Assembly: GCA_964462115.1 (NCBI GenBank)
Contig: CAYWWA010000002.1
Coordinates: forward strand, 6,560-70,559
Length of the DNA: 64,000 nt
Direction: 5' to 3'
DNA from: an uncultured Candidatus Saccharibacteria bacterium
GTDB taxonomy: Bacteria; Patescibacteriota; Minisyncoccia; Phycocordibacterales; CAIZIN01
The notes under the pieces are model-generated. The model searched no databases. It was not told where the DNA came from and saw nothing but the letters and a program-made list of their open reading frames with translations. Numbering within the stretch: the stretch's first letter is position 1; each line of letters starts with the position of its first letter. Positions 7,547 through 30,138 of the stretch are shown here, one piece after another. The position numbers were made by a program, and so were the translations under genes.

Positions 7547-9076
7547 ATGGACAACAAGTCTTCATCGCCATTTCGGGATTATTATTTTAATCGGGCTCAG
7601 CTAGAGAATAATAAAACTGAATATTTGTCATTCTTATCGGCTCTAAGGGTATTTGTAAATGCCATCAGAGATTATAAGAAGGGCGAAATTTTAAGCACTA
7701 AAGATTTTGTAGAATTTGTTAAGGTTCATAATGAAAATAATATTGAGTTAAATGATGTTGGGCCGTTTGCTAAATTAGATCAAGCGGTTAATTTTATGAC
7801 TGTGCACAAAGCAAAAGGTTTAGAGTTTGAAACAGTCTTTATCTTATCAGTCATTGATAGTGTTTGGGGCAAGGAAAGCCGAGCTAATAAATTAGCAATG
7901 CCGCTTAATTTAAAATTAAAATCTGATAGTGAAGACAATGACGATGATTGTTTGCGCTTATTTTTTGTAGCATTGACCAGAGCAAAGAAAAATTTATACA
8001 TCAGCTCTTTTGCTCAAAAAGATGATGGTAAAGAGGCGAACAAATTAAAGTTTTTATCGGGAACTGAAAATGAAGAAAAACTAAAATTGATTGATAAAAA
8101 TTATAATCAAAAAAATGAATCCATAGTTCCTGACGCTACTCTAGTCTTGGAGTCATCGTTGTTAGAGAATCAAAATCCACCAGTGGAATTTGTGGCTGAT
8201 GAAAAAGAACTATTAAAAACCTTAGTTAAAGATTATAAAATCTCTGTCACTCACTTAAATAATTTTCTAGATTTAACTAATGGTCATGGAGCAGAAAATA
8301 ATTATGGCCCACTATATTTTTTGGAGAATAATCTGTTAAGGTTTCCCTCAGGAAAAAGTTTGTCGGGTAGTTTCGGCTCCGCTATCCACTTTGCGCTAGA
8401 AAGGGCAATCAAAAATTTTAAAAAATCTGAGTCAAGCAAAATTGATAAGATAGTATCGGAGCAGGATTTATTCAAATGGTTTGAACAGAGTTTAAAAAGA
8501 GAAAAAATGTCTAAAATAGACTTTGCTAAATATTACGAGCGGGGAGTTTTTGCTTTGAAAAAATTTTGGCAAGAAAATAAAGATGATTTTAAAGTTAGCG
8601 ATTGGTCAGAATTTAGTTTTGCGAACGAGGGGGTAAAAATCGGTCAAGCTGTTCTTAATGGTAAGATTGATCGAATTAGTCAAACAGAAAAAGGGATTTT
8701 AGAGGTTTTTGATTTCAAAACCGGCAAAGCATTGAGAAAGTGGGGAAAGGATATCAAATCAATAAACTACAAGAGACAGTTGATTTTTTATAAAATTTTA
8801 GTTGAAAACTCTAAAAGTTTTGGTGATCAATTTGTGGTTCCTAAAGGAGAACTAGTTTTTATTGAACCAGACGAAAATGGGGAATTAACTCGATTGGCTT
8901 TAGAAATTGATTCTGATGAGGTAGAAAAGTTAAAGAGTTTACTTGATATTGTTTATACTAAAATTATCTCGTTAGAATTTCTAGATGAGGAGTTTCTGCA
9001 AAAACTATATAAATATCCTAAAACCATAGAGGGCAATCAACAGTTTGAACATGATTTATTAAATGGGCTAATCTAA
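7547..9076 (+). CDS. C-terminal half of a UvrD/PcrA-like SF1 helicase fused to a RecB-family PD-(D/E)xK nuclease domain
   Basis: Helicase motifs V/VI (FMTVHKAKGLEFETVF, RLFFVALTRAKKNLYIS); nuclease motifs GKIDRI, VFDFKTGK, QLIFYKIL; no Walker A or motifs I-IV. Confidence 0.7.
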   Translation: MDNKSSSPFRDYYFNRAQLENNKTEYLSFLSALRVFVNAIRDYKKGEILSTKDFVEFVKVHNENNIELNDVGPFAKLDQAVNFMTVHKAKGLEFETVFILSVIDSVWGKESRANKLAMPLNLKLKSDSEDNDDDCLRLFFVALTRAKKNLYISSFAQKDDGKEANKLKFLSGTENEEKLKLIDKNYNQKNESIVPDATLVLESSLLENQNPPVEFVADEKELLKTLVKDYKISVTHLNNFLDLTNGHGAENNYGPLYFLENNLLRFPSGKSLSGSFGSAIHFALERAIKNFKKSESSKIDKIVSEQDLFKWFEQSLKREKMSKIDFAKYYERGVFALKKFWQENKDDFKVSDWSEFSFANEGVKIGQAVLNGKIDRISQTEKGILEVFDFKTGKALRKWGKDIKSINYKRQLIFYKILVENSKSFGDQFVVPKGELVFIEPDENGELTRLALEIDSDEVEKLKSLLDIVYTKIISLEFLDEEFLQKLYKYPKTIEGNQQFEHDLLNGLI

Positions 9077-9104
9077 CTCTTACTAAAAGTAAACTATTAT
9101 TTTG

Positions 9105-9176
9105 CGGGCCCGCCCCGACTCGAACGGGGAACCTCGGTTTTGGAGACCGATGTTTTACCATTGAAACTACAAGCCC
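9105..9176 (-). tRNA. tRNA-Trp (anticodon CCA)
   Basis: Reverse complement folds as a cloverleaf: acceptor GGGCUUG/CGGGCCC with two G-U pairs, anticodon loop CUCCAAA, T-loop GTTCGAGTC; no encoded CCA. Confidence 0.75.
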
Positions 9177-9391
9177 TAGTTTCTTCCTGTTTAGGATATC
9201 ATTTTTTTATGAAAAAAGCAATTTTACTTTGATTTTGTTTTTAAAAAAGAATATTTAGATTTAGTGGAAAAATACAAAAATAAGTTTTTATCTATTAAAA
9301 GCGACCGTGATTATTATCTTTAATATTGCCAACTCTAAAATAGTATTTTATACTACTATATCCACAAAATAGCTATATTTTTTCAATGTTA

Positions 9392-9400
9392 TGTTATCAT
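9392..9400 (+). promoter_or_regulatory. Extended -10 TGTTATCAT 7 nt upstream of ATG 9408
   Basis: Same TGnTAT..AT pattern and spacing as other genes. Confidence 0.4.
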
Positions 9401-9407
9401 CAGAATC

Positions 9408-10304
9408 ATGAGAAAAGAAAAGGTAGTAAAGAAAAAAATATTAGTCCACGATGGCAGCTTTCACTGTGATGATGTCTGTGCGGTAGCCGTTTTATCGTTA
9501 TTATTCAATGGTCAGATTGAAATTATTCGTAGTCGAGAAGCAGCCAAAATTGCTACGGCAGATTATGTTTTAGACGTAGGGGGAAAATATGACGGTTTAC
9601 ATTTGTTCGACCATCATCAGGAGTCAATTTTGCGAGATAATGGTGTGCCGTTTGCAGCGTTTGGCTTGGTCTGGCGTAGTTTTGGCGAAGTGCTCTGTGG
9701 TGGTTCAGATCGAGTAGCTAAAATTATTGATCAAGAGCTAGTTCAACCTTGTGATGCTAATGATAATGGTTATAGTTTTTTTACTGCTTGCGACACTTTG
9801 TCACCCTTTGCTTTACCAGACTTAATTCATATTTTTAATAATACTTGGAAGGAAAAAGATCGAAAAGCAGATCAGGTTTTTGCTGATTTAGTAGAGTTTG
9901 CTAAGGGAGTAATTGCTCGTAAAATTGTTCGCACCATTGCTCAAATAGACGCTGAGGTAAAAATTAAAAAAATTTATAACGAAAGTAACGATAAGAAAAT
10001 TTTGGTTTTTGATGATAGTTATCCAGCTCGTGATCTTTTATTTTCAGATTTACTTGATGTAATTTTTACCGTAACTCCAGGTAATGATGACAAGTGGCGG
10101 GTGGAGGGTGTGCGCCAACAACCCAACTCTTATAAGTTGAGGAAAAGTCTACCTAAGAAATGGGCTGGCTTACGTGATGAAGAGTTGCAGGCGGTTTCAG
10201 GAGTATCCGACGCAGTTTTTTGTCATCGCAATTTATTTATGGCTGCTGCTAAAAGCCGAGAGGGGGCAATTCTCTTAGCACAGAAAGCTCTGGGCAAAAG
10301 ATAG
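9408..10304 (+). CDS. MYG1/UPF0160-family metal-dependent hydrolase
   Basis: N-terminal ILVHDGSFHCDDVCAVAVLSLL matches the UPF0160 signature. Confidence 0.7.
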   Translation: MRKEKVVKKKILVHDGSFHCDDVCAVAVLSLLFNGQIEIIRSREAAKIATADYVLDVGGKYDGLHLFDHHQESILRDNGVPFAAFGLVWRSFGEVLCGGSDRVAKIIDQELVQPCDANDNGYSFFTACDTLSPFALPDLIHIFNNTWKEKDRKADQVFADLVEFAKGVIARKIVRTIAQIDAEVKIKKIYNESNDKKILVFDDSYPARDLLFSDLLDVIFTVTPGNDDKWRVEGVRQQPNSYKLRKSLPKKWAGLRDEELQAVSGVSDAVFCHRNLFMAAAKSREGAILLAQKALGKR

Positions 10305-10308
10305 TCTT

Positions 10309-11142
10309 ATGCTTGAAAAAATATATCAAACTGTGGTGATTAATCTTGATAAGGATACTGATCGGATTTTGTTTATGCGACAGCAGTTTGAGCAGCAGGG
10401 GATTAGTTTTGAACGAATTAAAGGGGTGGACGGTCGTCATTATCTACAACTAAACCCACCCGGCACTGTGGGGGCAGAATATGATGAGAGTAAAGCTATT
10501 TTAAAATCTAGATTTGGCACAGCTTTAAGACCTGGAGTTTTGGGTTGTGCACTGGCTCATCAGCAGGCCTATCGGGAGTTTTTAACTAATCCCAGATATC
10601 AGAATGTAAAATTTTTAGTTATCTTTGAAGATGACGTGGTAATAAAAAATAATTTTAAGACAATTTTAGAAGCAGAAATTCAAAAAAATCTTAATCGCGC
10701 CGAAACAAAGCGGTGGAACTGTTTACAGTTTGATTATCCCCAATATAATTTTAATCTTTTTAGTCATTATAGGATGCAATTTAATCTTTTTAAAAAATTT
10801 TCTAAAAATAAATTTAGACGTTTACCTTATTTATTTTTTGCTCCTATTGCAATTTTATTGGAGCAATTACGTGGTTTACTTTTAGGAAAATTTTTTGCTG
10901 GTTCCTATCCTGTTTTTATGAGGGTGCCATCTAACTTAGGTTGCTACGTAATAGATAAAAAATTAGCTAAAAAATTGATAGAAGAAAATAGTCCCATCAT
11001 TAATCTGGCTGATGTCAATACCGATGTGGTTTATCAAAAATACAAAAAAACCACCACACCACTCATCTTTTTTCAATATTTTCCCAGAATTTCATATCAA
11101 GATCATCATCAGTTTTTGTCTTCTTCTAGTCAAATAGGCTAA
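10309..11142 (+). CDS. Glycosyltransferase family 25 (LPS/LOS-type)
   Basis: N-terminus VVINLDKDTDRILFMRQQFEQQGISFERIKGVDG is GT25-like; 4-nt gap from upstream gene. Confidence 0.6.
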   Translation: MLEKIYQTVVINLDKDTDRILFMRQQFEQQGISFERIKGVDGRHYLQLNPPGTVGAEYDESKAILKSRFGTALRPGVLGCALAHQQAYREFLTNPRYQNVKFLVIFEDDVVIKNNFKTILEAEIQKNLNRAETKRWNCLQFDYPQYNFNLFSHYRMQFNLFKKFSKNKFRRLPYLFFAPIAILLEQLRGLLLGKFFAGSYPVFMRVPSNLGCYVIDKKLAKKLIEENSPIINLADVNTDVVYQKYKKTTTPLIFFQYFPRISYQDHHQFLSSSSQIG

Positions 11143-11224
11143 ATGGGGTATTAAAAGTTTACAAAAATAAAACGCGTTAGAAATTAGATTTACGCGTTCA
11201 TTCATATAAATGACCCTATCTTTT

Positions 11225-11262
11225 AATTATAGCATATTTTACTTTTTTTGTCAAGTTTATAT
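11225..11262 (-). promoter_or_regulatory. Consensus sigma70 promoter (TTGACA-N17-TGcTATAAT) on minus strand, antisense to the GT25 3' end
   Basis: Reverse complement reads cTTGACAaaaaaagtaaaataTGCTATAATtaaaagataggg; the 23-nt block tatgctataattaaaagataggg is identical to the rplJ promoter at 17361-17383. Confidence 0.5.
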
Positions 11263-11274
11263 TTATATTTTTCC

Positions 11275-11300
11275 AAGCAAAAACCACTTGTGGTGGTTAT
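11275..11300 (-). terminator. Terminator downstream of tRNA-Ala
   Basis: aaccac/gtggtt hairpin followed by T-run on minus strand. Confidence 0.45.
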
Positions 11301-11313
11301 TTTCTTAGTTTTG

Positions 11314-11386
11314 TGGACCTTAGCGGATTCGAACCGCTGACCTCCTCATTGCAAATGAGGCGCTCTACCAACTAAGCTAAAGGCCC
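11314..11386 (-). tRNA. tRNA-Ala (anticodon TGC)
   Basis: Reverse complement GGGCCTTTAGCTTAGTTGGTAGAGCGCCTCATTTGCAATGAGG...GGTTCGAATCC; G3:U70 and A73 are Ala identity elements. Confidence 0.85.
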
Positions 11387-11433
11387 AACTTCTAGAGTAT
11401 AACACAAACTCGTTTTTTTGACAAACTAAAAGA

Positions 11434-12756
11434 CTAATTTTTGAGCGGTTGAATTATGGCCTGCCAAATAATTTTTCTCTGGTCTTTCATGGCTGGTAAA
11501 GCCAACAAAACCATCACTGGTAAGATACTGCAAATAATTCTGGTATAAGCCGCACCAATTACCCCAAAGTAATTTACTAAAACAACATTGATAATTACAC
11601 TACTTATTGCTCCCACCATACTATAGAGCATCATCAATTTAAATTGATTTTGTGATAATAGGTGTTGATATAAAATCAATCCAATATAGCTAAAAATAAT
11701 GGACCAAACTACTGTTTGTAAGAGTGAAATTGAAGCTAAATAAGCTTCACCGTAAAGTATGGTAATAGCTGGAGTAGCTGTTAGATAAGTGAAAAATGCT
11801 ATTAGTAAACTCAAATAAAACAAGAGAGAATAATATTTTTTAAGTCGTGATAAAAAAACTTGGTAATTATTACGGGACGAATTCAAGACTGCAGGCAAGA
11901 GGGCGGTAGAAATTGTGCCCAAAATTATTCCCCAGCCGTTACTTAGGGTAGTAGCAACAGTGTAAAATCCGACGTTTTCGGTGGTGGTGAAAGTTTTTAA
12001 AATTAGTTTATCAATTTCTCCACCGACGGTGCCAGTAAAAGCAGCGATGGAAAACGGAATTGAGTTCCAGCATAAAAATTTTACAATATCCTTATTGACT
12101 CTCCATGATAAAATATTATGATAGTGTCTTTGATAAAGAATAATATATCTAATGCTTGTCATCAGACTAAACAAGGCAAAGCTGGCAATGATAAAAGCAA
12201 TATCCAACCCCAATAAGACAATAACAATTCTAGCTAAGGCAAAAATAATTTCCCAAATAGCGTTCATAATAGCCACCGGTTTATTTTTGGCATCAGCTTG
12301 AAACTGCTGGTCAATAAAACTAAATACTCCCCAGATATTTCCAGAGGTGTATAAAATAATTAAGAAAAGCGTAAAGTTGCTCTTGGCCGAAATCAATGAA
12401 GCTAATAATACAATTAAAAAAGCGATTAGATTATTTACTATCTTAATCACTAAAGCTGAACCTAAAATTTCATTTCTTTTTTCTGGTTCAGCATTTAATT
12501 TTTTAACTAATAGTGAATTGGTGACAAAAAGGGAAATATTGAAGACTGCCACAAAACTTAAAATTGTGCTAAATAGACCATAACCTTCTGGGGTTAAGTA
12601 GCGAGCAATTGAGATAGAGGCAATTAGGCTGACGATGGTAGAGCAGAGTTTACAAATAAACATCCAAGAAATATTGGATAAATATTTACGAAAACCGTGA
12701 TGATTATGATATTGATCATAATATTTTTGCCAGATCTGTGTCATCCAAGCCATCAT
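11434..12756 (-). CDS. Wzx-like oligosaccharide flippase / polysaccharide biosynthesis protein (MOP superfamily)
   Basis: 440-aa polytopic membrane protein with a MOP-flippase-like N-terminus. Confidence 0.6.
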   Translation of the reverse strand: MMAWMTQIWQKYYDQYHNHHGFRKYLSNISWMFICKLCSTIVSLIASISIARYLTPEGYGLFSTILSFVAVFNISLFVTNSLLVKKLNAEPEKRNEILGSALVIKIVNNLIAFLIVLLASLISAKSNFTLFLIILYTSGNIWGVFSFIDQQFQADAKNKPVAIMNAIWEIIFALARIVIVLLGLDIAFIIASFALFSLMTSIRYIILYQRHYHNILSWRVNKDIVKFLCWNSIPFSIAAFTGTVGGEIDKLILKTFTTTENVGFYTVATTLSNGWGIILGTISTALLPAVLNSSRNNYQVFLSRLKKYYSLLFYLSLLIAFFTYLTATPAITILYGEAYLASISLLQTVVWSIIFSYIGLILYQHLLSQNQFKLMMLYSMVGAISSVIINVVLVNYFGVIGAAYTRIICSILPVMVLLALPAMKDQRKIIWQAIIQPLKN

Positions 12757-12762
12757 TTGTTT

Positions 12763-12771
12763 AGTATAACA
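12763..12771 (-). promoter_or_regulatory. Extended -10 TGTTATACT 6 nt upstream of the flippase ATG
   Basis: Reverse complement gives tTGtTATACTaaacaaATG. Confidence 0.4.
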
Positions 12772-12827
12772 AAAAATGCATTTTATGATAAAATATTGAT
12801 AATTTATTTCTTAACTTAAAAAAAGTT

Positions 12828-13253
12828 ATGTCATTATGGATTTGGTGGTTGATAATAATTATCATATTAGTGCTGGTGGAGGTAAGCACAGTCAATTTGG
12901 TTTCTATCTGGTTTGTGATTAGTGGAATTATTTCTTTGCTGTTAAGTTTAATTCCTAGCTTGGCAGATAATTATTTGTTGCAAACTGGCATTTTTGTCAT
13001 CGGTGGAGTTTTCTTTATGTTCCTTACCAAAGATTTTGTCCGAGGAATTAAAATGAATAAAAAGATTCCTACCAACTATGATCGCTTGTTTAATTTAGAG
13101 GGTGAGGTCTTAAATGATTTTGTGGGTAAAAAAGGTGAAGTAAAAATTGATGGAAAAATCTGGTCAGCACATTCTGAACAGGAAATTAAAAAAGGTGATA
13201 TAATAAAAGTGTTAGCGGTGGAAAGCACCAAATTAAAAGTAATTAAAAAATAA
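12828..13253 (+). CDS. NfeD-like membrane protein (short form; TM helices plus C-terminal OB-fold)
   Basis: Hydrophobic N-terminus, C-terminal beta-rich GEVKIDGKIWSAHSEQEIKKGDIIKVLAV; directly upstream of the SPFH gene. Confidence 0.65.
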   Translation: MSLWIWWLIIIIILVLVEVSTVNLVSIWFVISGIISLLLSLIPSLADNYLLQTGIFVIGGVFFMFLTKDFVRGIKMNKKIPTNYDRLFNLEGEVLNDFVGKKGEVKIDGKIWSAHSEQEIKKGDIIKVLAVESTKLKVIKK

Positions 13254-13256
13254 AAC

Positions 13257-14138
13257 ATGGAACTATTTTTTGTCATATTTATTATTGCGGTTATCTTTAT
13301 TGTTCTCGGAGTTAAGGTTGTGCCTCAATCAGAAAGTTATGTCTTGGAGCGTTTGGGAAGTTATTATGTGACTTGGAGTAATGGTCTACATTTTATGATT
13401 CCTTTGATAGATAAAATTTCTAATAAAATTACTCTAAAAGAGCGTTTGGGTGATTTTCCACCACAGCCAGTAATTACCAAGGATAACGTAACCATGCAAA
13501 TTGATACGGTGGTTTATTTCCAAGTGATTGATCCTAAACTTTATACCTACGGAATTCAAAATCCAATTTCTGCCATCGAAAACTTAACCGCAACAACTTT
13601 ACGTAACATTATTGGAGAGTTGGAACTGGACGAGACTTTGACTTCTCGTGATACTATTAACACTCAGATGCGAGCAATTCTAGATGACGCTACTGATGCT
13701 TGGGGAATCAAAATTAATCGAGTAGAATTAAAAAATATTTTACCTCCTGCTGCGATTCGTGAAGCGATGGAAAAACAAATGCGAGCCGAACGAGAACGAC
13801 GAGAGAAAATTTTACAAGCCGAGGGAGAAAAGAAAAGTCAAATTTTAATCGCTGAAGGTGAAAAGGAAAGTGCAATTTTGCGAGCAGAAGGGGTTAAACA
13901 ATCAAGAATTAAAGAGGCAGAAGGTGAAGCGCAGGCCATTGTGTCTTTGAATCAAGCGGAAGCCAAAGCAATTAATTTAATTAACGAGGCTGATGCTGGT
14001 AAGGCTTTTCTAACTTTGAAAGGATTTGAAGCTTTAGAGAAAGTCGCCAACGGTACAGCTACTAAGATAATTGTGCCAAGCAACCTACAAGATATCACTT
14101 CTTGGACTTCGTTGGTGGGAGATGTGCTAAAAAAATAA
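13257..14138 (+). CDS. SPFH/band-7 (stomatin/prohibitin-like) protein
   Basis: SPFH core plus coiled-coil EA-repeat tail. Confidence 0.8.
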   Translation: MELFFVIFIIAVIFIVLGVKVVPQSESYVLERLGSYYVTWSNGLHFMIPLIDKISNKITLKERLGDFPPQPVITKDNVTMQIDTVVYFQVIDPKLYTYGIQNPISAIENLTATTLRNIIGELELDETLTSRDTINTQMRAILDDATDAWGIKINRVELKNILPPAAIREAMEKQMRAERERREKILQAEGEKKSQILIAEGEKESAILRAEGVKQSRIKEAEGEAQAIVSLNQAEAKAINLINEADAGKAFLTLKGFEALEKVANGTATKIIVPSNLQDITSWTSLVGDVLKK

Positions 14139-14154
14139 AAGACTGGTAGAAAAT

Positions 14155-14191
14155 AAGGCGGAAATCGCAAAGCGATTTCTGCCTTATTTTT
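14155..14191 (+). terminator. Intrinsic terminator after the SPFH gene
   Basis: 14-bp stem aaggcggaaatcgc/gcgatttctgcctt followed by a T-run. Confidence 0.6.
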
Positions 14192-14212
14192 ATGGATTTT
14201 TTCTCAAAAATA

Positions 14213-14221
14213 TGCTATAAT
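14213..14221 (+). promoter_or_regulatory. Extended -10 TGCTATAAT 6 nt upstream of ATG 14228
   Basis: atatgctataatatatagATG. Confidence 0.5.
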
Positions 14222-14227
14222 ATATAG

Positions 14228-14791
14228 ATGGATAGAATTAGAAATTTTTCAATTATCGCTCATATTGATCATGGAAAATCAACTTTGGCTGATAGAATGT
14301 TGGAAATTACCCATACTGTAGAAGCGCGCAAAATGCACGATCGGGTTTTAGATGACATGGAGTTAGAACAAGAGCGAGGAATCACTATTAAAATGCGACC
14401 GGTGCGAATGGAGTTTCTGAGTAAACGTGATCAACAAAAATATATTCTTAATTTGATTGATACTCCCGGACACATAGATTTTTATTATGAAGTATCGCGC
14501 GCGCTCAAGGCGGTGGAGGGAAGTGTGCTTTTAGTAGATGCAACTCAGGGGGTTCAAGCTCAAACTTTAACCACCTTACAAATGGCTCGTGATGGTGGTC
14601 TAACTATTATCCCTGTGATCACCAAAATCGATTCTCCGATTGCCAACGTGGAAGAAACTAAATTAGAAATTATGCAGTTGCTTAATTGTGAAGAGAAAGA
14701 AATTATTGCCGTCTCCGGTAAAACTGGTGAAAATGTAGAATTTTTATTGGAGGAAATCTGCACCCGAGTCCCAGCTCCCAAAAAAATTTAA
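14228..14791 (+). CDS. LepA/EF4-like translational GTPase, G-domain only (187 aa)
   Basis: IRNFSIIAHIDHGKSTLADRMLE (G1), DTPGH (G3), TKID (G4); ends where LepA domain II would begin; stop overlaps next start (TAATG). Confidence 0.7.
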   Translation: MDRIRNFSIIAHIDHGKSTLADRMLEITHTVEARKMHDRVLDDMELEQERGITIKMRPVRMEFLSKRDQQKYILNLIDTPGHIDFYYEVSRALKAVEGSVLLVDATQGVQAQTLTTLQMARDGGLTIIPVITKIDSPIANVEETKLEIMQLLNCEEKEIIAVSGKTGENVEFLLEEICTRVPAPKKI

Positions 14792-16332: not shown

Positions 16333-16357
16333 AAAATTTAGCTAAAATCTTAAAATA

Positions 16358-16366
16358 AGTTATAAT
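16358..16366 (+). promoter_or_regulatory. -10 TATAAT 6 nt upstream of the dedA ATG
   Basis: aagTTATAATtgaccgATG. Confidence 0.35.
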
Positions 16367-16372
16367 TGACCG

Positions 16373-16999: not shown

Positions 17000-17071
17000 T
17001 TTTTTCTATATTTTATGATATAAAATAGTTTGATTGTTTTTTCTTAAATTGCTAAAGAAAGGTAGTAAGTT

Positions 17072-20409: not shown

Positions 20410-20419
20410 GGGTAGCCAG

Positions 20420-21715: not shown

Positions 21716-21734
21716 AAATTCATCAAGATAATCT

Positions 21735-21768
21735 AAAAAATACCCAACAAAATTGGGTATTTTTTTTA
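21735..21768 (+). terminator. Intrinsic terminator after rpoD
   Basis: aatacccaa/ttgggtatt hairpin followed by a T8 run. Confidence 0.6.
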
Positions 21769-21772
21769 TCTG

Positions 21773-21781
21773 TGTTAAAAT
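21773..21781 (+). promoter_or_regulatory. Extended -10 TGTTAAAAT 10 nt upstream of ATG 21792
   Basis: tgTGTTAAAATaaaaactattATG. Confidence 0.4.
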
Positions 21782-21791
21782 AAAAACTATT

Positions 21792-24413
21792 ATGTTATTA
21801 ATTAATGAACAAAAAGATAAAAAATTTTGGGCCCTGCCAGCTGATGAGGTCTTAACTTTATTAGAAAGTGATAAAGAAACTGGTTTAGATGAGGTGGAGG
21901 TGAAAGATAGACTAAAGCGGTTTGGTGCCAATATCATTCAGGGGGAATATAAGAATACTAAAATAAAAATTTTATTAGAACAATTATTATCTCCGTTAAT
22001 TTTAATACTAATTATTGCTGGGACGGTTTGTTTATTTATCCAAGAATGGAAAGACGCCGGTTTTATCTTTTTAGCAGTCTTCGTTAATACTATTCTAGGT
22101 TTTTACCAAGAAAATAAAGCGGACGAAGCTCTGGCTTCTCTAAAAAACTATCTAAGAGAGCAGTGCCTAATTATCCGCGAAGGCAAAGAAAAAAAAGTTG
22201 ATGTTAATGAAGTGGTAATTGGTGATATAATCCACCTTAGTCAAGGTGACAGGGTGCCAGCCGATGCCAGACTAATATCGGTAAATGATCTAGAAGTAGA
22301 TGAAGCAGTTTTAACTGGTGAAAGTTTACCAGCAGACAAACAGATTTTAGCTGTAAAAGAAAATGTTGGTATACCTGATCAAACTGGAATGGTATTTGCC
22401 GGAACCCTAGTGATGCAGGGTGCCGCCATCGCGGTGGTGGTGCGAACTGGTAGAAATACTGAAATTGGTAAAATTGCGACTTTACTGGCCGAGTCTAAAG
22501 GTGAAAAAACCCCACTGCAAAAAACCCTAACCACTTTCACGATGTGGTCAGGGTTGGTTTTAATTTTATTAACTGTGGTTGTTTTTATAATAGGTACTGT
22601 ATCGGGAGAGGGCTGGGTGGCAATGTTTTTGGTTGCCGTCGCCATTGCGGTTGGGTCAATCCCAGAGGGTTTACCGATTTCTATGACAGTAGTCTTGGCA
22701 GTTGGAGTAGAAAGAATGGCAAAACGTAAAGGGGTGGTGCGTAAATTAATGGCGGCCGAAACACTTGGTTCAGCTTCAATAATTTTGACTGATAAAACTG
22801 GAACACTAACACAGGCCAAAATGATTCTGAATAAAATAATTGGCTTTGATTTTGAAGAAGATCAATTATTGCGCTTTGCTTTAACTAATACCGCGGTAGT
22901 AGTAGAAAATCCTGAAGATAAGGTGGATGATTGGCGTATAGATGGAAAAATTATGGACGTGGCCTTGGTGCGAGAAGCAGGTAAACGTGGTATTAAACTG
23001 AGTGAAGTTTTAGCGCAAAGCAATATTTTACAAACCCTGCCATTCAATTCAACTCAAAAATATTCAGCCAGCCTAATTAAAGAGGGAGATAAACATAAAA
23101 TGTTATTTGTTGGTGCTCCAGATGTCTTACTCAAACAAGTTAATGTGGATCCTGCCGTAAAGAAACATTTAGAAAAACGAGTGGAAGAGTTGGCTTTTGC
23201 TGGTAATAGGGTTTTAGGTATCGCCAGCAAAGATTTAAATAAAATTAGTGCTAATTTTTCAATCACCCACGACAACATTTTAACTGAGATAAAACTAATT
23301 GGATTATTTGTTTTTAATGATCCAATCCGTCCTCATATTAAAGAAACTATTGCTCAAATTTCTATGGCGGGTATTAGAACAATAATCATGACCGGTGATC
23401 ATAAGGGAACTGCTATGGCGGTAGCTAAAGAAGTTGGTTTAAAAATAGATGGAAACTCAGTCTTGGACGCTAGTGAGTTAACTAAGTTGAGTGATACGGA
23501 GTTATCAAGCAGGTTACAACATCTTGCTGTGGTTTCTCGAGTTACCCCAGAAGATAAATTGCGTATCGCTAAACTTTTCCAAAAGGCGGGTGAAATTGTA
23601 GCTATGACTGGCGATGGAGTGAATGATGCTCCAAGTATCAAACAGGCTGATGTTGGTATCGCTATGGGATCGGGAACTGACGTGTCTCGTAACGTAGCCG
23701 ATTTGGTGCTGTTGGATGATAATTTTGAAACCGTGGTTGCTGCCATTGAAGAGGGAAGACAAATTCTAAAAAACCTAAAAAAGACCCTAACTTACAATTT
23801 CTTAAACGTAGCTGATTCCTTATGTTTAATTACTGGTTCATTATTGATTGGATTACCGCTACCGATGAACGCACTGCAGATCCTTTGGGTTAATTTCTTT
23901 TCTGATAGTTTTCCATCTATCGCTTTTGCCTTTGAACAAGAAAAAAATATTTTTGCCACTCCGCAGCATAAACGACAGACCTTATTTGATCCTTTGATGA
24001 AAAATATTATCTTATTTGCTGGTATCCTAACCTCAGTGCTCTTGTTATTTATTTACTGGTCATTATCAGTCTGGACCGAGATTGACGGCAAAACTATTCG
24101 CACCTTCATTTTCTTTACCTTCGGAATTTATACTATGTTTTGTACTTTTCCAATGCGTCAAATGCAAAAAAATATTTGGCAATATAATCCGCTTGAAAAT
24201 AAATTCTTAAATGGTGCTTCAATTTTAGGGTTGTGTCTAATGTTTTTAGCTATTTACGCACCTTTTATGCAAGACTTATTAGGAACAGTGGCCTTGTCGG
24301 GTCGGTGGTTTTTAGCAGCTATAGCCTTTTCTATAACAGCCATAGGTTTAATTGAGGCAGTTAAGGCTGTATTTAGAGTTAAAAGAAACAAACTTAAAGC
24401 TTATGTTAAATAA
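21792..24413 (+). CDS. P-type cation-transporting ATPase (P2-type, Ca2+-ATPase-like)
   Basis: DKTGTLT, PEGLP in TM4, MTGDHKGTAMAVAKEVGL, TGDGVNDAPSIKQADVGIAMG; ORF-track start 21753 less likely. Confidence 0.85.
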   Translation: MLLINEQKDKKFWALPADEVLTLLESDKETGLDEVEVKDRLKRFGANIIQGEYKNTKIKILLEQLLSPLILILIIAGTVCLFIQEWKDAGFIFLAVFVNTILGFYQENKADEALASLKNYLREQCLIIREGKEKKVDVNEVVIGDIIHLSQGDRVPADARLISVNDLEVDEAVLTGESLPADKQILAVKENVGIPDQTGMVFAGTLVMQGAAIAVVVRTGRNTEIGKIATLLAESKGEKTPLQKTLTTFTMWSGLVLILLTVVVFIIGTVSGEGWVAMFLVAVAIAVGSIPEGLPISMTVVLAVGVERMAKRKGVVRKLMAAETLGSASIILTDKTGTLTQAKMILNKIIGFDFEEDQLLRFALTNTAVVVENPEDKVDDWRIDGKIMDVALVREAGKRGIKLSEVLAQSNILQTLPFNSTQKYSASLIKEGDKHKMLFVGAPDVLLKQVNVDPAVKKHLEKRVEELAFAGNRVLGIASKDLNKISANFSITHDNILTEIKLIGLFVFNDPIRPHIKETIAQISMAGIRTIIMTGDHKGTAMAVAKEVGLKIDGNSVLDASELTKLSDTELSSRLQHLAVVSRVTPEDKLRIAKLFQKAGEIVAMTGDGVNDAPSIKQADVGIAMGSGTDVSRNVADLVLLDDNFETVVAAIEEGRQILKNLKKTLTYNFLNVADSLCLITGSLLIGLPLPMNALQILWVNFFSDSFPSIAFAFEQEKNIFATPQHKRQTLFDPLMKNIILFAGILTSVLLLFIYWSLSVWTEIDGKTIRTFIFFTFGIYTMFCTFPMRQMQKNIWQYNPLENKFLNGASILGLCLMFLAIYAPFMQDLLGTVALSGRWFLAAIAFSITAIGLIEAVKAVFRVKRNKLKAYVK

Positions 24414-25356
24414 TATATTTATACTAGCCGCTTCATTGTATTTTGTGATTATGGCGGCCGAATTGGCAACTAAATATGCTACCGGTTTAGCAAAACATTT
24501 TAGACTTTCTAAACACACAGTGGGTGTATTGGTGGTAGCAGTTATCTCTATTTTGCCAGAAACATTTATCTCAGTGACTTCAGCGCTTCATGGCGAGTCA
24601 GAGGTTGGTTTGGGTATGTTATTTGGGGCTAATATTGCAGACCTGACACTGATAATGGGCTTAATAGTTTTGTTGGCTGGAGCTACTAGTCTAAAAGTTA
24701 ATAAAAAGATTTTAAAAGAAAATAAAATTTATCCACTTTTTATGCTATTGCCGGTTATTTTTGGTTTAGATGGAGTCTACACCAGATTTGATGGATTATC
24801 CCTAGTAGTAGCAGGAGCAATTTTTTATTATCTAACTTTTAAAAACAATGTGGTGGATCAGCCAGCCGAAAATGAGCTGCCAATTCAAAGTGGTCGGGCT
24901 AAAAATGCTTTAGCCCTTTTGTCCAGTATGGCGCTTTTATTAGTAGCGGCAAACTATGTAGTTTCTTCCTCAGTAGGCTTGGCAGAGCAATTAGAAATTA
25001 GTCCGATTCTGATTTCGATGGTATTGATTGCTGTTGGTACCACTGTACCAGAATTCATCTTTTCTTATAAGGCGGTTAAAAAGAATGAGGACGCTTTGGC
25101 TTTGGGTGATTTGTTGGGGACTGTTTTGGCTAACGCCACCATTGTGACTGGAATACTGGTCTTAATTAACCCATTTACAGTTAATAAGGCAATTATTTAT
25201 GTTTCCGGCACCTTTATGGTGGTAGCAGCCTTTTTACTGTTTAAGTTTATGCATTCTAATCGTAATGTGTCTAGAAATGAAGCGGTGTGGTTAATATTGT
25301 TCTGGGTTTGTTTCGTTTTTGTTCAATTTGTCACACAGGAATTTATCATCAACTAA
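24403..25356 (+). CDS. CaCA-family Na+/Ca2+ exchanger-like membrane protein (YrbG-like)
   Basis: Two alpha-repeat motifs ILPETFISV and GTTVPEFIFS; start overlaps the ATPase stop. Confidence 0.7.
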   Translation: MLNNIFILAASLYFVIMAAELATKYATGLAKHFRLSKHTVGVLVVAVISILPETFISVTSALHGESEVGLGMLFGANIADLTLIMGLIVLLAGATSLKVNKKILKENKIYPLFMLLPVIFGLDGVYTRFDGLSLVVAGAIFYYLTFKNNVVDQPAENELPIQSGRAKNALALLSSMALLLVAANYVVSSSVGLAEQLEISPILISMVLIAVGTTVPEFIFSYKAVKKNEDALALGDLLGTVLANATIVTGILVLINPFTVNKAIIYVSGTFMVVAAFLLFKFMHSNRNVSRNEAVWLILFWVCFVFVQFVTQEFIIN

Positions 25357-25390
25357 AAAATCAACCTAAATAAAAACCACCTAAATCGTG

Positions 25391-25423
25391 GTTTTTATTA
25401 TTTTGTTGCGGGGGTCGGAATCG
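25391..25423. repeat. 33-bp direct repeat copy 1: the tRNA-fMet 3' end (T-loop to discriminator) plus 15 nt of 3' flank
   Basis: gtttttattattttgttgcgggggtcggaatcg is identical at 25391-25423 and 25566-25598. Confidence 0.8.
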
Positions 25424-25565
25424 CCCTGCATAAAATCCTCGTCGCCACTCGGATTTTTGCTCGGGCCTGCTCTCGGTCAAATTTTTTGCTAAAAATTTGA
25501 CCTGCGATCTTCGATTCCTCCTTCCTGCTAATAAAATATAATAAAAACTCTTTCCAGAAGTCAGA

Positions 25566-25598
25566 GTTTTTATTATTTTGTTGCGGGGGTCGGAATCG
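25566..25598. repeat. 33-bp direct repeat copy 2; overlaps the genuine tRNA-fMet 3' end
   Basis: See copy 1. Confidence 0.8.
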
Positions 25599-25652
25599 AA
25601 CCGACAGTCCCAAGGTTATGAGCCTTGTGAGTTACCGTTACTCCACCCCGCT
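25581..25652 (-). tRNA. Initiator-type tRNA-Met (anticodon CAT), immediately downstream of fmt
   Basis: Cloverleaf has A11:U24 in the D-stem, A72 with an unpaired 1:72 (A.A), anticodon loop CUCAUAA; only two of the three G-C pairs typical of initiator anticodon stems. Confidence 0.65.
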
Positions 25653-25726
25653 ATAAACTTCTTTGATAATATCATTCTTTTCAGAAAAAAGCAAGTGCAA
25701 AAATGTTTAATTTTTTCACCAAAATA

Positions 25727-26614
25727 TTATTTAAGCCCTCGCAAAAAATCTAGCCAATTCATTTCTTTTTTACCTTCTGGAATCACTGTTAAGATTTCTA
25801 ATTTTTCATTTTTAAGTTCAGCTGTTTTAATCACAAGGCGGATTTGTTTGTGATTGTGCTCTACTAAAGTCCAAGCGTTTGGCCAACCATAATAGGCTTG
25901 AATTTTTAAGAAATTTTTTCGTGCTAAATTACTTTGTTGCAAATCTTGCCAACTAATTTCAGCCTCCTGTTTATTGATTTTTTTAGTATAACTAGCCTCT
26001 GCGTGATTTTGAGCTTGGGGAGTAATTTTGTTCTCTATCCAATCTGGCAAAATCTCAACCAGCAACCTTGCATTTAGCTCTGCTAATTTTTGTTCCAGAA
26101 TCTCTCGGTTAAAAATTTCTGAATTCCCAAGCTGAGCTTGTTTTAAAATTGGCCCATGATCCATTTCTTTATCTAACAACATGACCGACACCCCGATATT
26201 TTTTTCATCATCTAAAATTTGATATTCAATGGGAGCAGGACCGCGATATTTAGGTAAAAGTGATGGATGAGCGTTAAGGGTCTGGTGGGGTGGTAGCCCC
26301 AAAAATCTTTCAGGAATTATTTTGCCATAGGAGGCTACAATCGCTACATCAACCCGGTGTTGAGAGATAAAATTTTGTAAAAACTCAAAAGCTTCCTCAT
26401 CTAACTTATTTGGCTGAAAAATCGGCACCTGATTATTTTGAGCCCAAATTTTGGTCAGGGTGGGCTTAATTTCCATTTTACGACCTTGGGCTTGATCGGG
26501 GGTTGAAACAATCAAGCAGGGCTTAAAATTAGCCTTTAACAAGGTGTCCAAGATGAAAACGGAAAATTCTGAAGTGCCGTAAAAAATAAAATTAATTTGG
26601 GGCATGGGTGACAT
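25727..26614 (-). CDS. fmt: Methionyl-tRNA formyltransferase
   Basis: SLLPKYRGPAPIEYQILDDEKNIGVSVM; N-terminal formyltransferase domain; adjacent to tRNA-fMet. Confidence 0.85.
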   Translation of the reverse strand: MSPMPQINFIFYGTSEFSVFILDTLLKANFKPCLIVSTPDQAQGRKMEIKPTLTKIWAQNNQVPIFQPNKLDEEAFEFLQNFISQHRVDVAIVASYGKIIPERFLGLPPHQTLNAHPSLLPKYRGPAPIEYQILDDEKNIGVSVMLLDKEMDHGPILKQAQLGNSEIFNREILEQKLAELNARLLVEILPDWIENKITPQAQNHAEASYTKKINKQEAEISWQDLQQSNLARKNFLKIQAYYGWPNAWTLVEHNHKQIRLVIKTAELKNEKLEILTVIPEGKKEMNWLDFLRGLK

Positions 26615-26620
26615 TTGATG

Positions 26621-26629
26621 ATTATAACA
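26621..26629 (-). promoter_or_regulatory. Extended -10 TGTTATAAT 6 nt upstream of the fmt ATG
   Basis: Reverse complement gives aaaaaTGTTATAATcatcaaATG. Confidence 0.45.
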
Positions 26630-26686
26630 TTTTTACTTAAATATATCTATTTAGATTATTTTATCCACTACTAAATATTTTTTCTA

Positions 26687-26695
26687 TGCTATAAT
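26687..26695 (+). promoter_or_regulatory. Extended -10 TGCTATAAT; first usable ATG at 26703 (leaderless)
   Basis: The ORF-track ATG at 26694 lies inside the -10, so 26703 is the likely start. Confidence 0.45.
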
Positions 26696-26702
26696 GTTAA
26701 GA

Positions 26703-27587
26703 ATGATTTTAAGCACAAGAAAAAAAATTAAGAGAGCTGTTTTATTAACTACATTATTTTATGGATTAAGTTTTTTAAATCTGTCTCCAGTCTCAGCTAT
26801 TCAAATTCAAGATAAATATCAAAATATTGGTGGTGAAAAAGTAAAAATTTTATTAGTTCCAGGACATGATCTAAAAAGTGGCGGGGCAGAAATTGACGGA
26901 CTCAAGGAGCGAGAGATTGTGGTCAAAGTGGCAGAAGCGCTAAATCAACTATTGGAGGACGACCATAGAATTAAAGTGGTGCAGATTCGCGATAGCGAGA
27001 AATGGAACCCTGATTTTAAAAAATATTTATCATCACGTAATGTGAAGAAGGTGGTAGGGTGGATTGAAGCAAGTAAGAAGAAATTTAATAGTAAAAAAGT
27101 TAATAGGGAGATATTTGATAATGTGGTGGTTTATCACAATACTGTCAACACCCGCACCAGAGACCGGTTGTATGCTATCAATAAATTTGCCAATGATAAT
27201 AATTTTGATTTAGTGCTCAACCTACATTTCAATGATTATCCTAATCGTATAGTTGGCGAAGAAAAATATCGCGGTTTTGCAATTTATATTCCAGACCAGG
27301 CTTATAAAAATAGTGCCAATAGTGAGGCAATTGCTAAGTCTGTTTTTAACAGCCTGCTCAAAGTTAATACAGTTAGTAACTTGCCCGGTGAAAATACTGG
27401 CGTCGTCTATGATCCAGAATTGATTGCTGTTGGGGCTTATAATACACTCAAGGCTCCTAGCTTACTAATTGAATATGCCTATCTTCATGAACTACTAAAC
27501 TTAACTGAAACCGAGTGGGAAGAAAAAATTACCGCTTTAGCTGTGGCCACCTATGAAGGCTTGCAAAATTTTTTACAAAGCAAATAA
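26703..27587 (+). CDS. N-acetylmuramoyl-L-alanine amidase (Amidase_3 family), secreted
   Basis: Signal peptide; LLVPGHDLKSGGAEIDGLKEREIVVKVAEAL resembles the Amidase_3 catalytic N-terminus. Confidence 0.55.
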   Translation: MILSTRKKIKRAVLLTTLFYGLSFLNLSPVSAIQIQDKYQNIGGEKVKILLVPGHDLKSGGAEIDGLKEREIVVKVAEALNQLLEDDHRIKVVQIRDSEKWNPDFKKYLSSRNVKKVVGWIEASKKKFNSKKVNREIFDNVVVYHNTVNTRTRDRLYAINKFANDNNFDLVLNLHFNDYPNRIVGEEKYRGFAIYIPDQAYKNSANSEAIAKSVFNSLLKVNTVSNLPGENTGVVYDPELIAVGAYNTLKAPSLLIEYAYLHELLNLTETEWEEKITALAVATYEGLQNFLQSK

Positions 27588-27634
27588 TAAAAAAGATACC
27601 CCAACTCAAGCCTGAAGCAGAGTTGGGGTGTTTT

Positions 27635-28048
27635 TTAAATAGAAATGGCACAAATGTCACGTTTTAATTTTAGCGTTAATTGCGCCACTGTCTCATTCCA
27701 AACCGATTTAGTGAATAGGTCATCAAAGACCACTAGAATTATCAACTTACCCTGGTTGAGAGCCAGCAAATTGGCAACACGTTCGGGATCATAAGATATC
27801 CCACGTAGAGCCAGATCTTCGCTTGCGATAGCCTCGGTTGCAAAAAATTTTGGGTTGGCAATAATTTCAGCCGTTTGCCTGACAAAATTGATTGGCGTGT
27901 AAAAAATTTTAACCTCACCAATCTTACTATCAGCCAACTCTTTCCAAAGTTGGCAAGCTCGCCTATGCACTTGGCTACTTCCATAATCTGTAAGGTCGTT
28001 TCCTTTTCGTTCTCCGTTTTTGAAGACGCAAACTAAAGAAATGCTCAT
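27635..28048 (-). CDS. Hypothetical GC-rich protein (137 aa) with a flavodoxin-like/TIR-like or histidine-phosphatase-like pattern lacking canonical catalytic residues
   Basis: SD GGGAG upstream; TTGACT-N17-TTATAT promoter; VCVFKNGERKG near the N-terminus and LIILVVFDDLFTKSVW near the C-terminus. Confidence 0.4.
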   Translation of the reverse strand: MSISLVCVFKNGERKGNDLTDYGSSQVHRRACQLWKELADSKIGEVKIFYTPINFVRQTAEIIANPKFFATEAIASEDLALRGISYDPERVANLLALNQGKLIILVVFDDLFTKSVWNETVAQLTLKLKRDICAISI

Positions 28049-28197
28049 CGTTTTTCTCCCGCTGACCAGACTAATAAGTCTCACAAAAGTTTTGTTTGTG
28101 ATAAAAAACTCTAAGCCTGATAGTCTTGTAAAAGAACTTACTATATATAATCATATTTTTAGAGATAAGTCAATTAGTTGTTTTCAAGCAAAAATAG

Positions 28198-28206
28198 AGT
28201 TATAAT
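28198..28206 (+). promoter_or_regulatory. -10 TATAAT 6 nt upstream of ATG 28213
   Basis: gagtTATAATatttaaATG. Confidence 0.4.
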
Positions 28207-28212
28207 ATTTAA

Positions 28213-30138
28213 ATGGCAACCGCAAATAAAGAATCAAATATTATTTTTGAACAACAATATAAAAAATTAAACAAGAAACAAAAACAAGCGGTAGACACTA
28301 TTGATGGTCCTTTATTAGTAGTGGCTGGTCCAGGCTCTGGCAAAACTGAAATATTATCTTTACGGGTGGGGAAAATTTTACAAAAAAGTCATGGTATATC
28401 ACCAAGCAATATCTTGTGTCTAACTTTTACCGATGCTGCCGCTAGCAACATGCGTCAACGTTTAGCAAAATATATTGGTGAGAGTGCCTATAAGGTTGGT
28501 ATCTATACTTTTCATTCTTTTTGTCAGGATATCATTCAAAAATATCCAGAGTATTTTTTTAATAATGCCACTTTTAATGTACCAAGCGAAGCGGAAAAGT
28601 TTCAAGTAATGACTGAAATTTTTAACCAACTACCCGAAGGGGAAGGGAAGCATCCGCTCAATTCTTTCCACCCAGAGCAAGGTTATGTATTTTTAAATCC
28701 CGCTCTGCAAAATATTTCCAAACTTAAACGCGAAGGTGTTTCTCCAGAAGATTTTGAACAGATTTTAGCGTGCAATATGGCAGATATGGAAAAAATTAAT
28801 AAAATTTTATCGCCTATTTTTAGTGAACGCGTATCTAGCAAAACTATCAATAAACTAGATGAAGTTTTAGAAGAAGTAAAAAAAATTGCAGTTAAAAGCA
28901 AAGAGGCTTTTCCTAATAAACACTCCTATCAAAATTATGCCGAAGTGTTGTGGCAAGATTTAGCTAAGGCAATCAGCGCTCACAATTTATCAGAATTTAA
29001 ATCTGATAATTTCAAAAAAATGGACGAAGTTTCAGTTTTAAAAGACTTCGTTAATTTACCCAAAATTAAAGCGTTTGCGCAGGTTTATAAAAATTATTTG
29101 ACCAAAATGTTTGAAAGGGGATTTTATGATTTTGACGATATGATCATGCATTGTTTAAATATTTTGGAAGGAGAAAGAGATTTGCGAGCAATGTTACAGG
29201 AACAATACCAATATATTTTGGTTGATGAGTTTCAGGATTCCAACGATCCGCAGATGCGTTTAATTAAGTGTTTAACCTCTGATGTAGAACAGCCCAACAT
29301 TATGGTGGTAGGAGACGATGATCAAGCTATCTACAAATTTCAAGGAGCAAACATTGCCAATATTTTAAATTTTAACGAAAATTATGCTGGCAAAACTATA
29401 ACCATGGTGGAGAACTATCGTTCTTCCCAAGATATTTTAGATTTAGCTAGCTTTATGATTAGAAAAGGACAAAACAGGTTAGAAAATATAAATCCCCAAA
29501 TTAGTAAAGAATTAGTGGCGTCTAGGCCTGAGCCGTTGGAGGGTGAAATTGGTTTTTTATCTTTCCCCAGCCAACCTGATGAATTTACCTTTATCGCTTC
29601 TGAGGTAAAAAAAATAATTAACAACGGAACTAAAGCTGAAGAAATTGCCGTGTTATCTCGTGATCACAAAACTCTGCAAAAACTAGTGCCATATTTTCAT
29701 CATCAAAAAATTTCCATTGCCTACGAAAAACAACGCAATGTCTTAAAGGATGCTCGCATAAAACAAATTATTACCATTATTGAATATTTAGATTCATTTG
29801 GACAAGAGAACAAAGAAGAAAGAGATGATTTGCTGCCAGCAATAATGGCTATGCCGTTTTGGGAAATACCCAGAATTGAAATTTGGAAAGTGGCCCAAAA
29901 AACTGGTTGGAAAGAGAGTGGACTTGATCAAAACGGAGATAAAAAATTTATCAACAAAAAATGGTTAGAGGTTATGTTGGAAAGCTCTCATCAAAAAGTT
30001 AGAGGACTAGCCGAGTTTTTATTGGAATTGCAAATAGACGCTAAAAATGTTCCTCTAGAAAAAATATTAGATCGGATTATTGGTTCTAAAATAAATTACA
30101 CCCATACCACAGATGAAGAAGAAAATGAAGAGCTATAG
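28213..30138 (+). CDS. N-terminal half of a UvrD/PcrA-like SF1 helicase (motifs Q, I-IV)
   Basis: VVAGPGSGKTE (Walker A), ILVDEFQDSN (II), VVGDDDQAIYKFQGA (III), ENYRSSQDIL (IV); ends inside the predicted 2B domain; motifs V/VI absent. Confidence 0.75.
   Translation: MATANKESNIIFEQQYKKLNKKQKQAVDTIDGPLLVVAGPGSGKTEILSLRVGKILQKSHGISPSNILCLTFTDAAASNMRQRLAKYIGESAYKVGIYTFHSFCQDIIQKYPEYFFNNATFNVPSEAEKFQVMTEIFNQLPEGEGKHPLNSFHPEQGYVFLNPALQNISKLKREGVSPEDFEQILACNMADMEKINKILSPIFSERVSSKTINKLDEVLEEVKKIAVKSKEAFPNKHSYQNYAEVLWQDLAKAISAHNLSEFKSDNFKKMDEVSVLKDFVNLPKIKAFAQVYKNYLTKMFERGFYDFDDMIMHCLNILEGERDLRAMLQEQYQYILVDEFQDSNDPQMRLIKCLTSDVEQPNIMVVGDDDQAIYKFQGANIANILNFNENYAGKTITMVENYRSSQDILDLASFMIRKGQNRLENINPQISKELVASRPEPLEGEIGFLSFPSQPDEFTFIASEVKKIINNGTKAEEIAVLSRDHKTLQKLVPYFHHQKISIAYEKQRNVLKDARIKQIITIIEYLDSFGQENKEERDDLLPAIMAMPFWEIPRIEIWKVAQKTGWKESGLDQNGDKKFINKKWLEVMLESSHQKVRGLAEFLLELQIDAKNVPLEKILDRIIGSKINYTHTTDEEENEEL

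Follow-up and report, generated by a model that had tools for sequence, protein, structure and literature searches.

A UvrD-like helicase-nuclease encoded as two complementary, unlinked half genes in a Patescibacteria contig: evidence favoring gene fission and relocation

How does a helicase-nuclease that is a single chain in most of its relatives come to be encoded by two genes that lie 19 kb apart on the same strand, with the gene for the C-terminal half upstream of the gene for the N-terminal half? The question is raised by a 64-kb stretch of DNA from an uncultured Candidatus Saccharibacteria bacterium (NCBI GenBank assembly GCA_964462115.1, contig CAYWWA010000002.1, positions 6,560 to 70,559), the whole of which is called the window below. 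The two open reading frames (ORFs), termed here the N-half and the C-half, lie where a first-pass annotation had placed them, and the motifs that it had read in their translations were seen again: the superfamily 1 (SF1) helicase motifs Q, I (Walker A), Ia, II, III, and IV in the N-half, among them GPGSGKT, DEFQD, GDDDQ, and NYRS, and in the C-half the nuclease motifs GKIDRI (C372-377), DFKTGK (C389-394), and the QxxxY sequence QLIFY (C411-415). Motifs V and VI are carried by the C-half and not by the polypeptide with motifs I-IV, so that the features of a UvrD/Rep/PcrA-like helicase of the SF1A group are complete across the two products without being arranged in a single chain. The account favored here, with moderate confidence, is that gene fission followed by relocation has given a working two-subunit helicase-nuclease.

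Profile comparisons divide one protein family between the two products. The N-half matches positions 1-270 of 271 of the Pfam UvrD-helicase profile (E 6e-70), and its match to UvrD_C is confined to positions 1-123 of 350; the C-half takes up UvrD_C at 227-348 of 350 and continues into PDDEXK_1 (C261-466). Alignments to the NCBIfam UvrD/Rep models give the same division, the N-half reaching ~494 and the C-half beginning at ~504-508, and the domain boundaries of UvrD presumably place the cut inside 2B, shortly before the chain re-enters 2A. A database search showed that a single-chain protein of ~1100 aa with the same combined architecture is widespread in Patescibacteria (Parcubacteria/Paceibacteria). 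One such protein, P0125 (1102 aa), aligns with the N-half over residues 1-612 and with the C-half over residues 606-1102, so that the halves are exactly complementary, without loss or duplication. The best full-length matches of both halves are the same proteins (P0125-P0136, 44-47% identity with each half), and this sharing of nearest full-length relatives at the same distance shows derivation from one ancestral gene rather than from two paralogues. The single-chain protein, typified by P0125, P0136, and P0138 and named “ATP-dependent DNA helicase,” belongs to the same family from end to end and has all of the conserved motifs; the window departs from it with two genes that are unlinked, that stand in reverse order, and that are cut within an acidic loop of 2B. 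Further fragments of the gene were not found by tblastn over the whole window.

These results bear out the earlier proposal that the two ORFs are complementary parts of a single helicase-nuclease family, as judged by the profile split, the common best full-length matches, and the similar identities. The first-pass annotation had also named the finding that would overturn this proposal, namely that the ORFs belong to different helicase families, or that each is a complete family in its own right, such as an AddB-like protein and a separate nuclease; neither is the case in these comparisons. An AddB-like protein, with degenerate motifs and a four-cysteine Fe-S site, was rejected as an identity in view of the single cysteine of the C-half and the intact helicase motifs of both halves.

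The position of the cut can be specified closely. In the homologues, the corresponding linker is acidic, varies in length from ~0 to 30 residues, and is flanked by “...EPLEKILDxIIG” and “SPF(K/R)xYYF.” The N-half terminates inside this linker (...IIGSKINYTHTTDEEENEEL), and the C-half starts inside it (MDNKSSSPFRDYYF). The halves were also joined head to tail as a single chain and modeled with AlphaFold2 from an alignment of 70 full-length homologues. In the resulting model, for which the mean predicted local distance difference test score (pLDDT) is 83.3 and the predicted template modeling score is 0.77, the junction (residues 627-644, pLDDT <50) is the longest among four short stretches of low confidence and is flanked by confident helices at 615-623 and 650-683. 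The cut is thus predicted by the model to fall in a flexible surface loop of the 2B domain. Among full-length structures, the joined model is closest in fold to AddA (4CEJ_A; Foldseek E 6e-34, 18% identity), with PcrA and UvrD matching the helicase core in the structural search. Profile models or structure prediction had been suggested as the means of confirming that the halves are complementary, and the two agree, UvrD_C being divided between the halves and the joined halves being modeled as an AddA-like fold. As a lead only, the PcrA entries 2PJR and 1QHH, which are deposited as several chains, might be a precedent for an SF1 helicase that is nicked yet folded.

Whether two such pieces are still under constraint was addressed by adding the joined window protein to an alignment of 111 full-length homologues, in which 226 columns reach a conservation of 90% or more. 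The joined halves keep 92.5% of these columns, as compared with a family mean of 97% and a minimum of 89%. The 17 positions not kept comprise 16 substitutions, mostly conservative, and one gap, and the catalytic motifs are untouched: Walker A, DEFQD, GDDDQ, and NYRS are intact in the N-half, and the C-half keeps H87, K90, G91, E93, and VALTRA of motifs V and VI together with the nuclease residues D375, D389 and K391 (the D-x-K pair), Q411, and Y415. Helicase-specific columns in both halves are conserved as well as the nuclease columns. Both pieces retain their helicase motifs although neither has the whole of an ATPase site, a combination that argues for joint function of the halves.

Another line of evidence concerns the start signals. 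The −10 elements that had been reported for both halves (TGCTATAAT and TATAAT) were located, each ending 6 nt before the ATG. Within the window, TATAAT stands at −12 from an ATG at 11 sites, as opposed to 1.3 expected by chance, and 9 of the 11 are at the starts of long ORFs, including folD, a lepA piece, fmt, ftsW, and a gene for a protein of 2145 aa, which argues that this arrangement is the genome's own leaderless start signal. Examples of sites ending 6 nt before an ATG are 5019-5024, 7535-7540, 14216-14221, 16361-16366, 28201-28206, and 30189-30194, and TGn often precedes the TATAAT start elements of the window. The pattern indicates that leaderless mRNAs from −10-only promoters are widespread in this genome. 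Upstream of the C-half, a terminator-like hairpin would make this half a separate transcription unit, and it would be surprising for a random fragment to have gained a start codon and a consensus promoter precisely in the linker. To judge from the position of TATAAT, translation of the 2145-aa ORF may begin with the ATG at 57201 and not with the GTG at 57204. Coordinates of the main features are collected in Table 1.

Table 1. Positions in the window of the two half genes, their boundaries and start signals, and other split genes
Feature	Position	Strand	Size	Description
N-half gene	28213..30138	+	641 aa	Domains 1A, 1B, first part of 2A, most of 2B
C-half gene	7547..9076	+	509 aa	Last 2B helices, second part of 2A, RecB-type PD-(D/E)xK nuclease
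Break point, N side	30088..30138	+		16-residue acidic tail THTTDEEENEEL and stop codon, within the variable acidic loop of the family
Break point, C side	7547..7564	+		MDNKSS directly ahead of conserved SPF(K/R)xYYF
Extended −10 element TGCTATAAT	7532..7540	+		Ends 6 nt before the C-half ATG; leaderless-type, without Shine-Dalgarno
−10 element TATAAT	28201..28206	+		Ends 6 nt before the N-half ATG; leaderless-type, without Shine-Dalgarno
Terminator-like hairpin with T-run	7490..7525	+		Closes the upstream PG_binding gene
tRNA-Trp	9104..9176	-		Adjoins the 3' side of the C-half
Interval between halves	9177..28212			Ordinary chromosomal genes, not a mobile element
lepA (EF4) G-domain piece	14228-14791	+	187 aa	Profile 2-183/595; other domains absent
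uvrA C-piece	47985-49844	-		UvrA profile 402-942/943
uvrA N-piece	59408-60325	-		UvrA profile 3-237/943

Comparison with relatives shows both how unusual this locus is and how often the family has been divided. The closest sequence in the collections searched is 48-49% identical, a metagenome scan found an intact collinear gene at nearly all long loci, and the window's particular split is rare. Other sequences of the family indicate that it clearly tolerates splitting and has been split several times. In one two-gene form, cut at residue ~444, genes for 434 and 686 aa overlap by ATGA (L094-L096); the ATGA form is at least 99.97% identical across three samples, and its C-piece protein occurs on 11 contigs, including one of 1.16 Mb. 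The ~444-type form is also found in P0104, P0041, and about 20 others, and 24 of its C-pieces share a start position at a median pairwise identity of 37%, which marks the form as old; at least one such C-piece (L008) stands alone. The ~444 form is a conserved natural split of the enzyme within the 2A region and, like the window pair, leaves a Walker-motif N-piece and a nuclease-bearing C-piece, whereas its cut follows motif IV instead of falling in the 2B loop, and in its best example the genes are adjacent and translationally coupled rather than 19 kb apart. A further lineage, cut at residue ~592-631, is represented by two stand-alone C-pieces (P0087 and P0062, mutually 45% identical), both of which follow a divergent GatB_Yqey gene immediately, in the same position, and neither of which has an N-piece within 10 kb.

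Breaks in the same acidic loop were encountered as well, in L001 as a frameshift, in L005 as overlapping ORFs in different frames, and in P0173 as a stop; P0206 ends in the loop too, in an entry flagged as partial, and represents a possible break only. Little weight is given to such cases, as single frameshifts may be sequencing errors. Several apparent splits were discounted or set aside. L001 and L007, which are not clean splits and lend weak support at most, each prove to be a collinear gene with one frameshift, and they share downstream synteny; “C-half-only” proteins starting at ~575 or 689 (P0042, P0018, and others) begin at a conserved internal Met after frameshifts or contig ends; and the reading frame of L012, a candidate stand-alone C-half, is open up to the contig edge. 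In L092 (JGI Ga0558119_01552), an error-prone assembly, the helicase is in three pieces and the genes for a penicillin-binding protein (PBP) and lysyl-tRNA synthetase are fragmented too. The contig of L004 ends 15 nt after the N-half stop, and P0206 ends in the same acidic linker; strain-level variation in linker length may break assemblies and make half genes seem more numerous in databases than they are.

The order of the halves poses a separate problem. As had been pointed out, a C-before-N order on the same strand is beyond the reach of a single insertion. Translocation, or duplication then loss, of pieces that were already separate can yield it, and on a circular chromosome the order is functionally meaningless because the pieces are independent genes. 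Insertion of a mobile element between the halves was considered and rejected, as the interval holds housekeeping genes: MYG1, GT25, Wzx, NfeD/SPFH, the lepA G-domain piece, ABC-F, L10/L7-L12, an ABC exporter, rpoD, a P-type ATPase, fmt, and an amidase. Genes are co-oriented, and GC skew is positive and uniform, both in the interval and across 1-36 kb. Repeats were not found at the four half-gene boundaries, and the tRNA-Trp gene is a possible rearrangement breakpoint.

Other features of this region were noted in passing. Cumulative GC skew peaks at ~36000-37300, where genes on the plus strand to the left and on the minus strand to the right converge, a replication-terminus-like pattern. The interval contains a perfect 33-nt direct repeat (25391-25423 and 25566-25598, spacing 175 nt), the second copy of which overlaps the 3' end of tRNA-Met (25580-25652, minus strand), possibly as an att-like integration remnant. 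Secreted-looking proteins are encoded on either side of the pair, both on the plus strand: a PG_binding_1 protein (6380-7477) precedes the C-half, and a cysteine-rich protein of 504 aa (30201-31715), which has an internal ~58 nt repeat (CN[TS]xAxC...KYW) and is without a Pfam match, follows the N-half.

The history that we infer, including the order and mechanism of rearrangement as well as the reassembly, activity, and role of the products, would run as follows. An ancestral gene of ~1100 codons for a PcrA/UvrD-type SF1A helicase fused to a RecB-type nuclease would have broken in the disordered acidic 2B loop, and its pieces would have become independent genes, each with a −10-only promoter and a leaderless mRNA. 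A later chromosomal rearrangement would have left the C-piece on the same strand as the N-piece but 19 kb upstream of it. By fragment complementation, the two polypeptides would then reassemble non-covalently as a heterodimer, in which the N-piece would supply domains 1A and 1B, the first 2A segment, motifs Q to IV, and most of 2B, and the C-piece the last 2B helices, the nuclease, and the second 2A segment with the motifs V and VI that complete the ATPase site. Such a heterodimer would act like the single-chain enzyme, as a helicase-nuclease for DNA-end processing or repair; by analogy with AddA, RecB, and UvrD, its role is probably the processing or repair of DNA ends.

A number of observations weigh against this account. 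The joined halves retain the second-lowest proportion of conserved positions among 112 sequences, which fits a long branch but is also compatible with some relaxed selection. A very recent break would likewise leave both ORFs intact, and the nearest relatives (P0003, P0004, P0122, and P0123), at 48-49% identity, are unbroken through the linker. Frameshifts or error-prone assemblies account for several of the apparent splits in databases (L001, L007, and L092), and solid parallels are limited to the ATGA form and the lineage of P0087 and P0062. Moreover, the cut parts the two segments of the discontinuous 2A domain, and function would need an intimate complementation of fragments. The same window also holds a frameshifted ABC exporter.

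Several of these points bear on the possibility that both pieces are recent pseudogene fragments, dead but not yet marked by disabling mutations. Retention of conserved columns below the family mean, the truncated lepA, the frameshifted exporter, and the lack of any relative found with exactly this split would all fit such an origin, which is nevertheless considered unlikely. The break is exact and without loss, leftover fragments are absent beside both halves, and the pieces remain open over 1.5 kb and 1.9 kb in a genome of 35% G+C with every catalytic motif intact; the C-half opens with a new ATG behind a consensus leaderless promoter, with a terminator farther upstream; and split forms are kept in other lineages at sequence identities of 37-45%. 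The first-pass annotation had offered two options, fission with rearrangement of repair genes or a decaying repair system, and it is the former that is favored: with motifs intact, a clean cut, leaderless promoters of their own, and stable split forms in other lineages, decay is unsupported. Less probable again is independent action of the halves, with the C-half serving as a stand-alone nuclease that keeps a DNA-binding remnant and the N-half as an ATPase or translocase fragment. C-pieces in L006, L090, and L008 do lack an N-piece within 10 kb. In SF1 helicases such as PcrA and UvrD, however, the ATP site lies between 1A and 2A and motif VI gives an arginine to it, and here the N-half is without motifs V and VI and the C-half without Walker motifs; conservation of the helicase columns at the level of the nuclease columns would also be unexpected had helicase function been lost.

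Artefact offers a different kind of explanation, that of a chimeric or mis-joined contig that hides a collinear gene. The source contig, 83.8 kb long, is metagenomic and from an uncultured organism, and the contigs of two relatives (L004 and P0206) end in or just after the same loop, yet this explanation seems improbable, as a mis-join would produce neither the acidic tail and stop codon that close the N-half nor the ATG, consensus promoter, and terminator found at the start of the C-half. The boundaries are without repeats, skew and gene orientation are uniform as described above, and long genes of the window are intact (2145, 1125, and 886 aa). Finally, a split intein or RNA trans-splicing might join the halves once they are expressed. 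Genes with split inteins, such as cyanobacterial dnaE, typically have unlinked, non-collinear halves, as is the case here. The non-homologous tail of the N-half is, however, just 16 residues long and the head of the C-half ~6, whereas an N-intein has ~100 aa and a C-intein ~35 aa with HN at its end, and neither Pfam intein domains nor a Cys/Ser/Thr +1 context was found. The boundaries likewise gave no match to introns or other RNA families, and their spacers of 62-128 nt are filled by the terminator and promoters. Joining of this kind is thus regarded as very remote. Fission and relocation stays the favored account of the pair.

Assigning the enzyme to a known family is less straightforward than recognizing its architecture. 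Against the NCBIfam PcrA model, with a cut-off of 911 bits, the N-half scores 246 and full-length P0125 scores 287; the N-half reaches 120 bits with addA_Gpos (cut-off 708) and 101 with recB (cut-off 696). The halves and the full-length homologues alike are far below the curated AddA, RecB, PcrA, and UvrD cut-offs. On these scores the enzyme belongs to no curated equivalog, and it combines an AddA/RecB-type architecture with a PcrA/UvrD-like motor. AddA of the Bacillus subtilis AddAB complex (PDB 4CEJ/3U44) and RecB of RecBCD share with it the order of an SF1A helicase and a C-terminal RecB-type nuclease, but they differ in that identity is only 13-18% and the helicase core of the window protein is closer to PcrA/UvrD. 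No AddB or RecC/RecD partner is present among the annotated ORFs of the window. The earlier description of the enzyme as “AddA-like” holds for its architecture and best fold match and fails at the level of curated families, all of whose cut-offs are missed.

The helicase-nuclease is not the only divided gene here. The two uvrA pieces are collinear, with 9.5 kb between them that includes gidB, a PBP1 gene, and the 2145-aa ORF, and neither piece covers the insertion-domain region. The 120 best homologues of the uvrA N-piece are all short (224-533 aa), mostly at 60-76% identity, with several on contigs >100 kb, and in L091 the genes for an N-piece (336 aa) and a C-piece (480 aa) stand adjacent between uvrB and uvrC. 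From its homologues, this split looks like one that is conserved in Paceibacteria-like lineages. The stop codon of the lepA piece overlaps the start of the gene for the ABC-F ATPase (TAATG), and a complementary piece, comprising domains II-V and LepA_C without a G domain (405 aa), stands alone in L094/L095 (1624-2846); lepA thus also appears, in these sequences, to be a split gene in Patescibacteria. The suggestion of extensive fission of DNA-repair genes in this lineage can be retained as to fission, uvrA being split as well, but not as to a restriction to repair, since lepA is split too. The MsbA-like ABC exporter (18548-20334, plus strand) was tried as another example and rejected. Its overlapping ORFs for the transmembrane and nucleotide-binding domains result from the loss of 1 nt in an A-run (GAAAAG to GAAAG, near 19694-19699), just before Walker A, and this is a frameshift, either real or a sequencing error, and not gene fission.

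A precedent for division of this kind exists in the archaeon Nanoarchaeum equitans, in which reverse gyrase and other enzymes are encoded as unlinked halves (PMC6349945, PMC3655853). The two systems are alike in that multi-domain enzymes of an ultra-small symbiont, whose genome is reduced, are divided between structural units into genes that are separate and unlinked. They differ in that the archaeal cuts fall between autonomous domains, whereas the window cut lies inside a discontinuous domain, in a bacterium and in a different protein. Fission of the Nanoarchaeum type would give intact, separately expressed, and conserved pieces whose products associate; in the window, the pieces are intact and have separate start signals. 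In the literature searched, no description of a split helicase-nuclease, uvrA, or lepA in bacteria of the Candidate Phyla Radiation (CPR) was found, which is not proof of novelty.

A wider reading may be put forward, although only tentatively and with some doubt. Patescibacteria might routinely run large multi-domain housekeeping and repair enzymes, such as this helicase-nuclease, UvrA, and LepA, as two chains from separate and often unlinked genes, in convergence with the split genes of Nanoarchaeota among ultra-small episymbionts. The locus would then be the first natural SF1 helicase with 2A and 2B built from two polypeptides, and the acidic 2B loop might be a permissive, possibly regulatory, site of repeated fission. 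Control of helicase activity is a known role of the 2B domain in UvrD, Rep, and PcrA.

For the interpretation of CPR genomes, the locus suggests that half-length “helicase,” “UvrA,” and “LepA” genes ought not to be counted by default among pseudogenes or lost functions, as such scoring affects estimates both of DNA-repair capacity and of genome completeness. Caution is called for in the other direction as well, many database “splits” being frameshift artefacts that need to be separated from real ones, and a comparison with the split genes of nanoarchaea suggests itself. If the two products do reassemble, two chains that part within the 2B/2A region can make up an SF1A helicase, and the pair would offer a natural fragment-complementation system in which to study control by the 2B domain.

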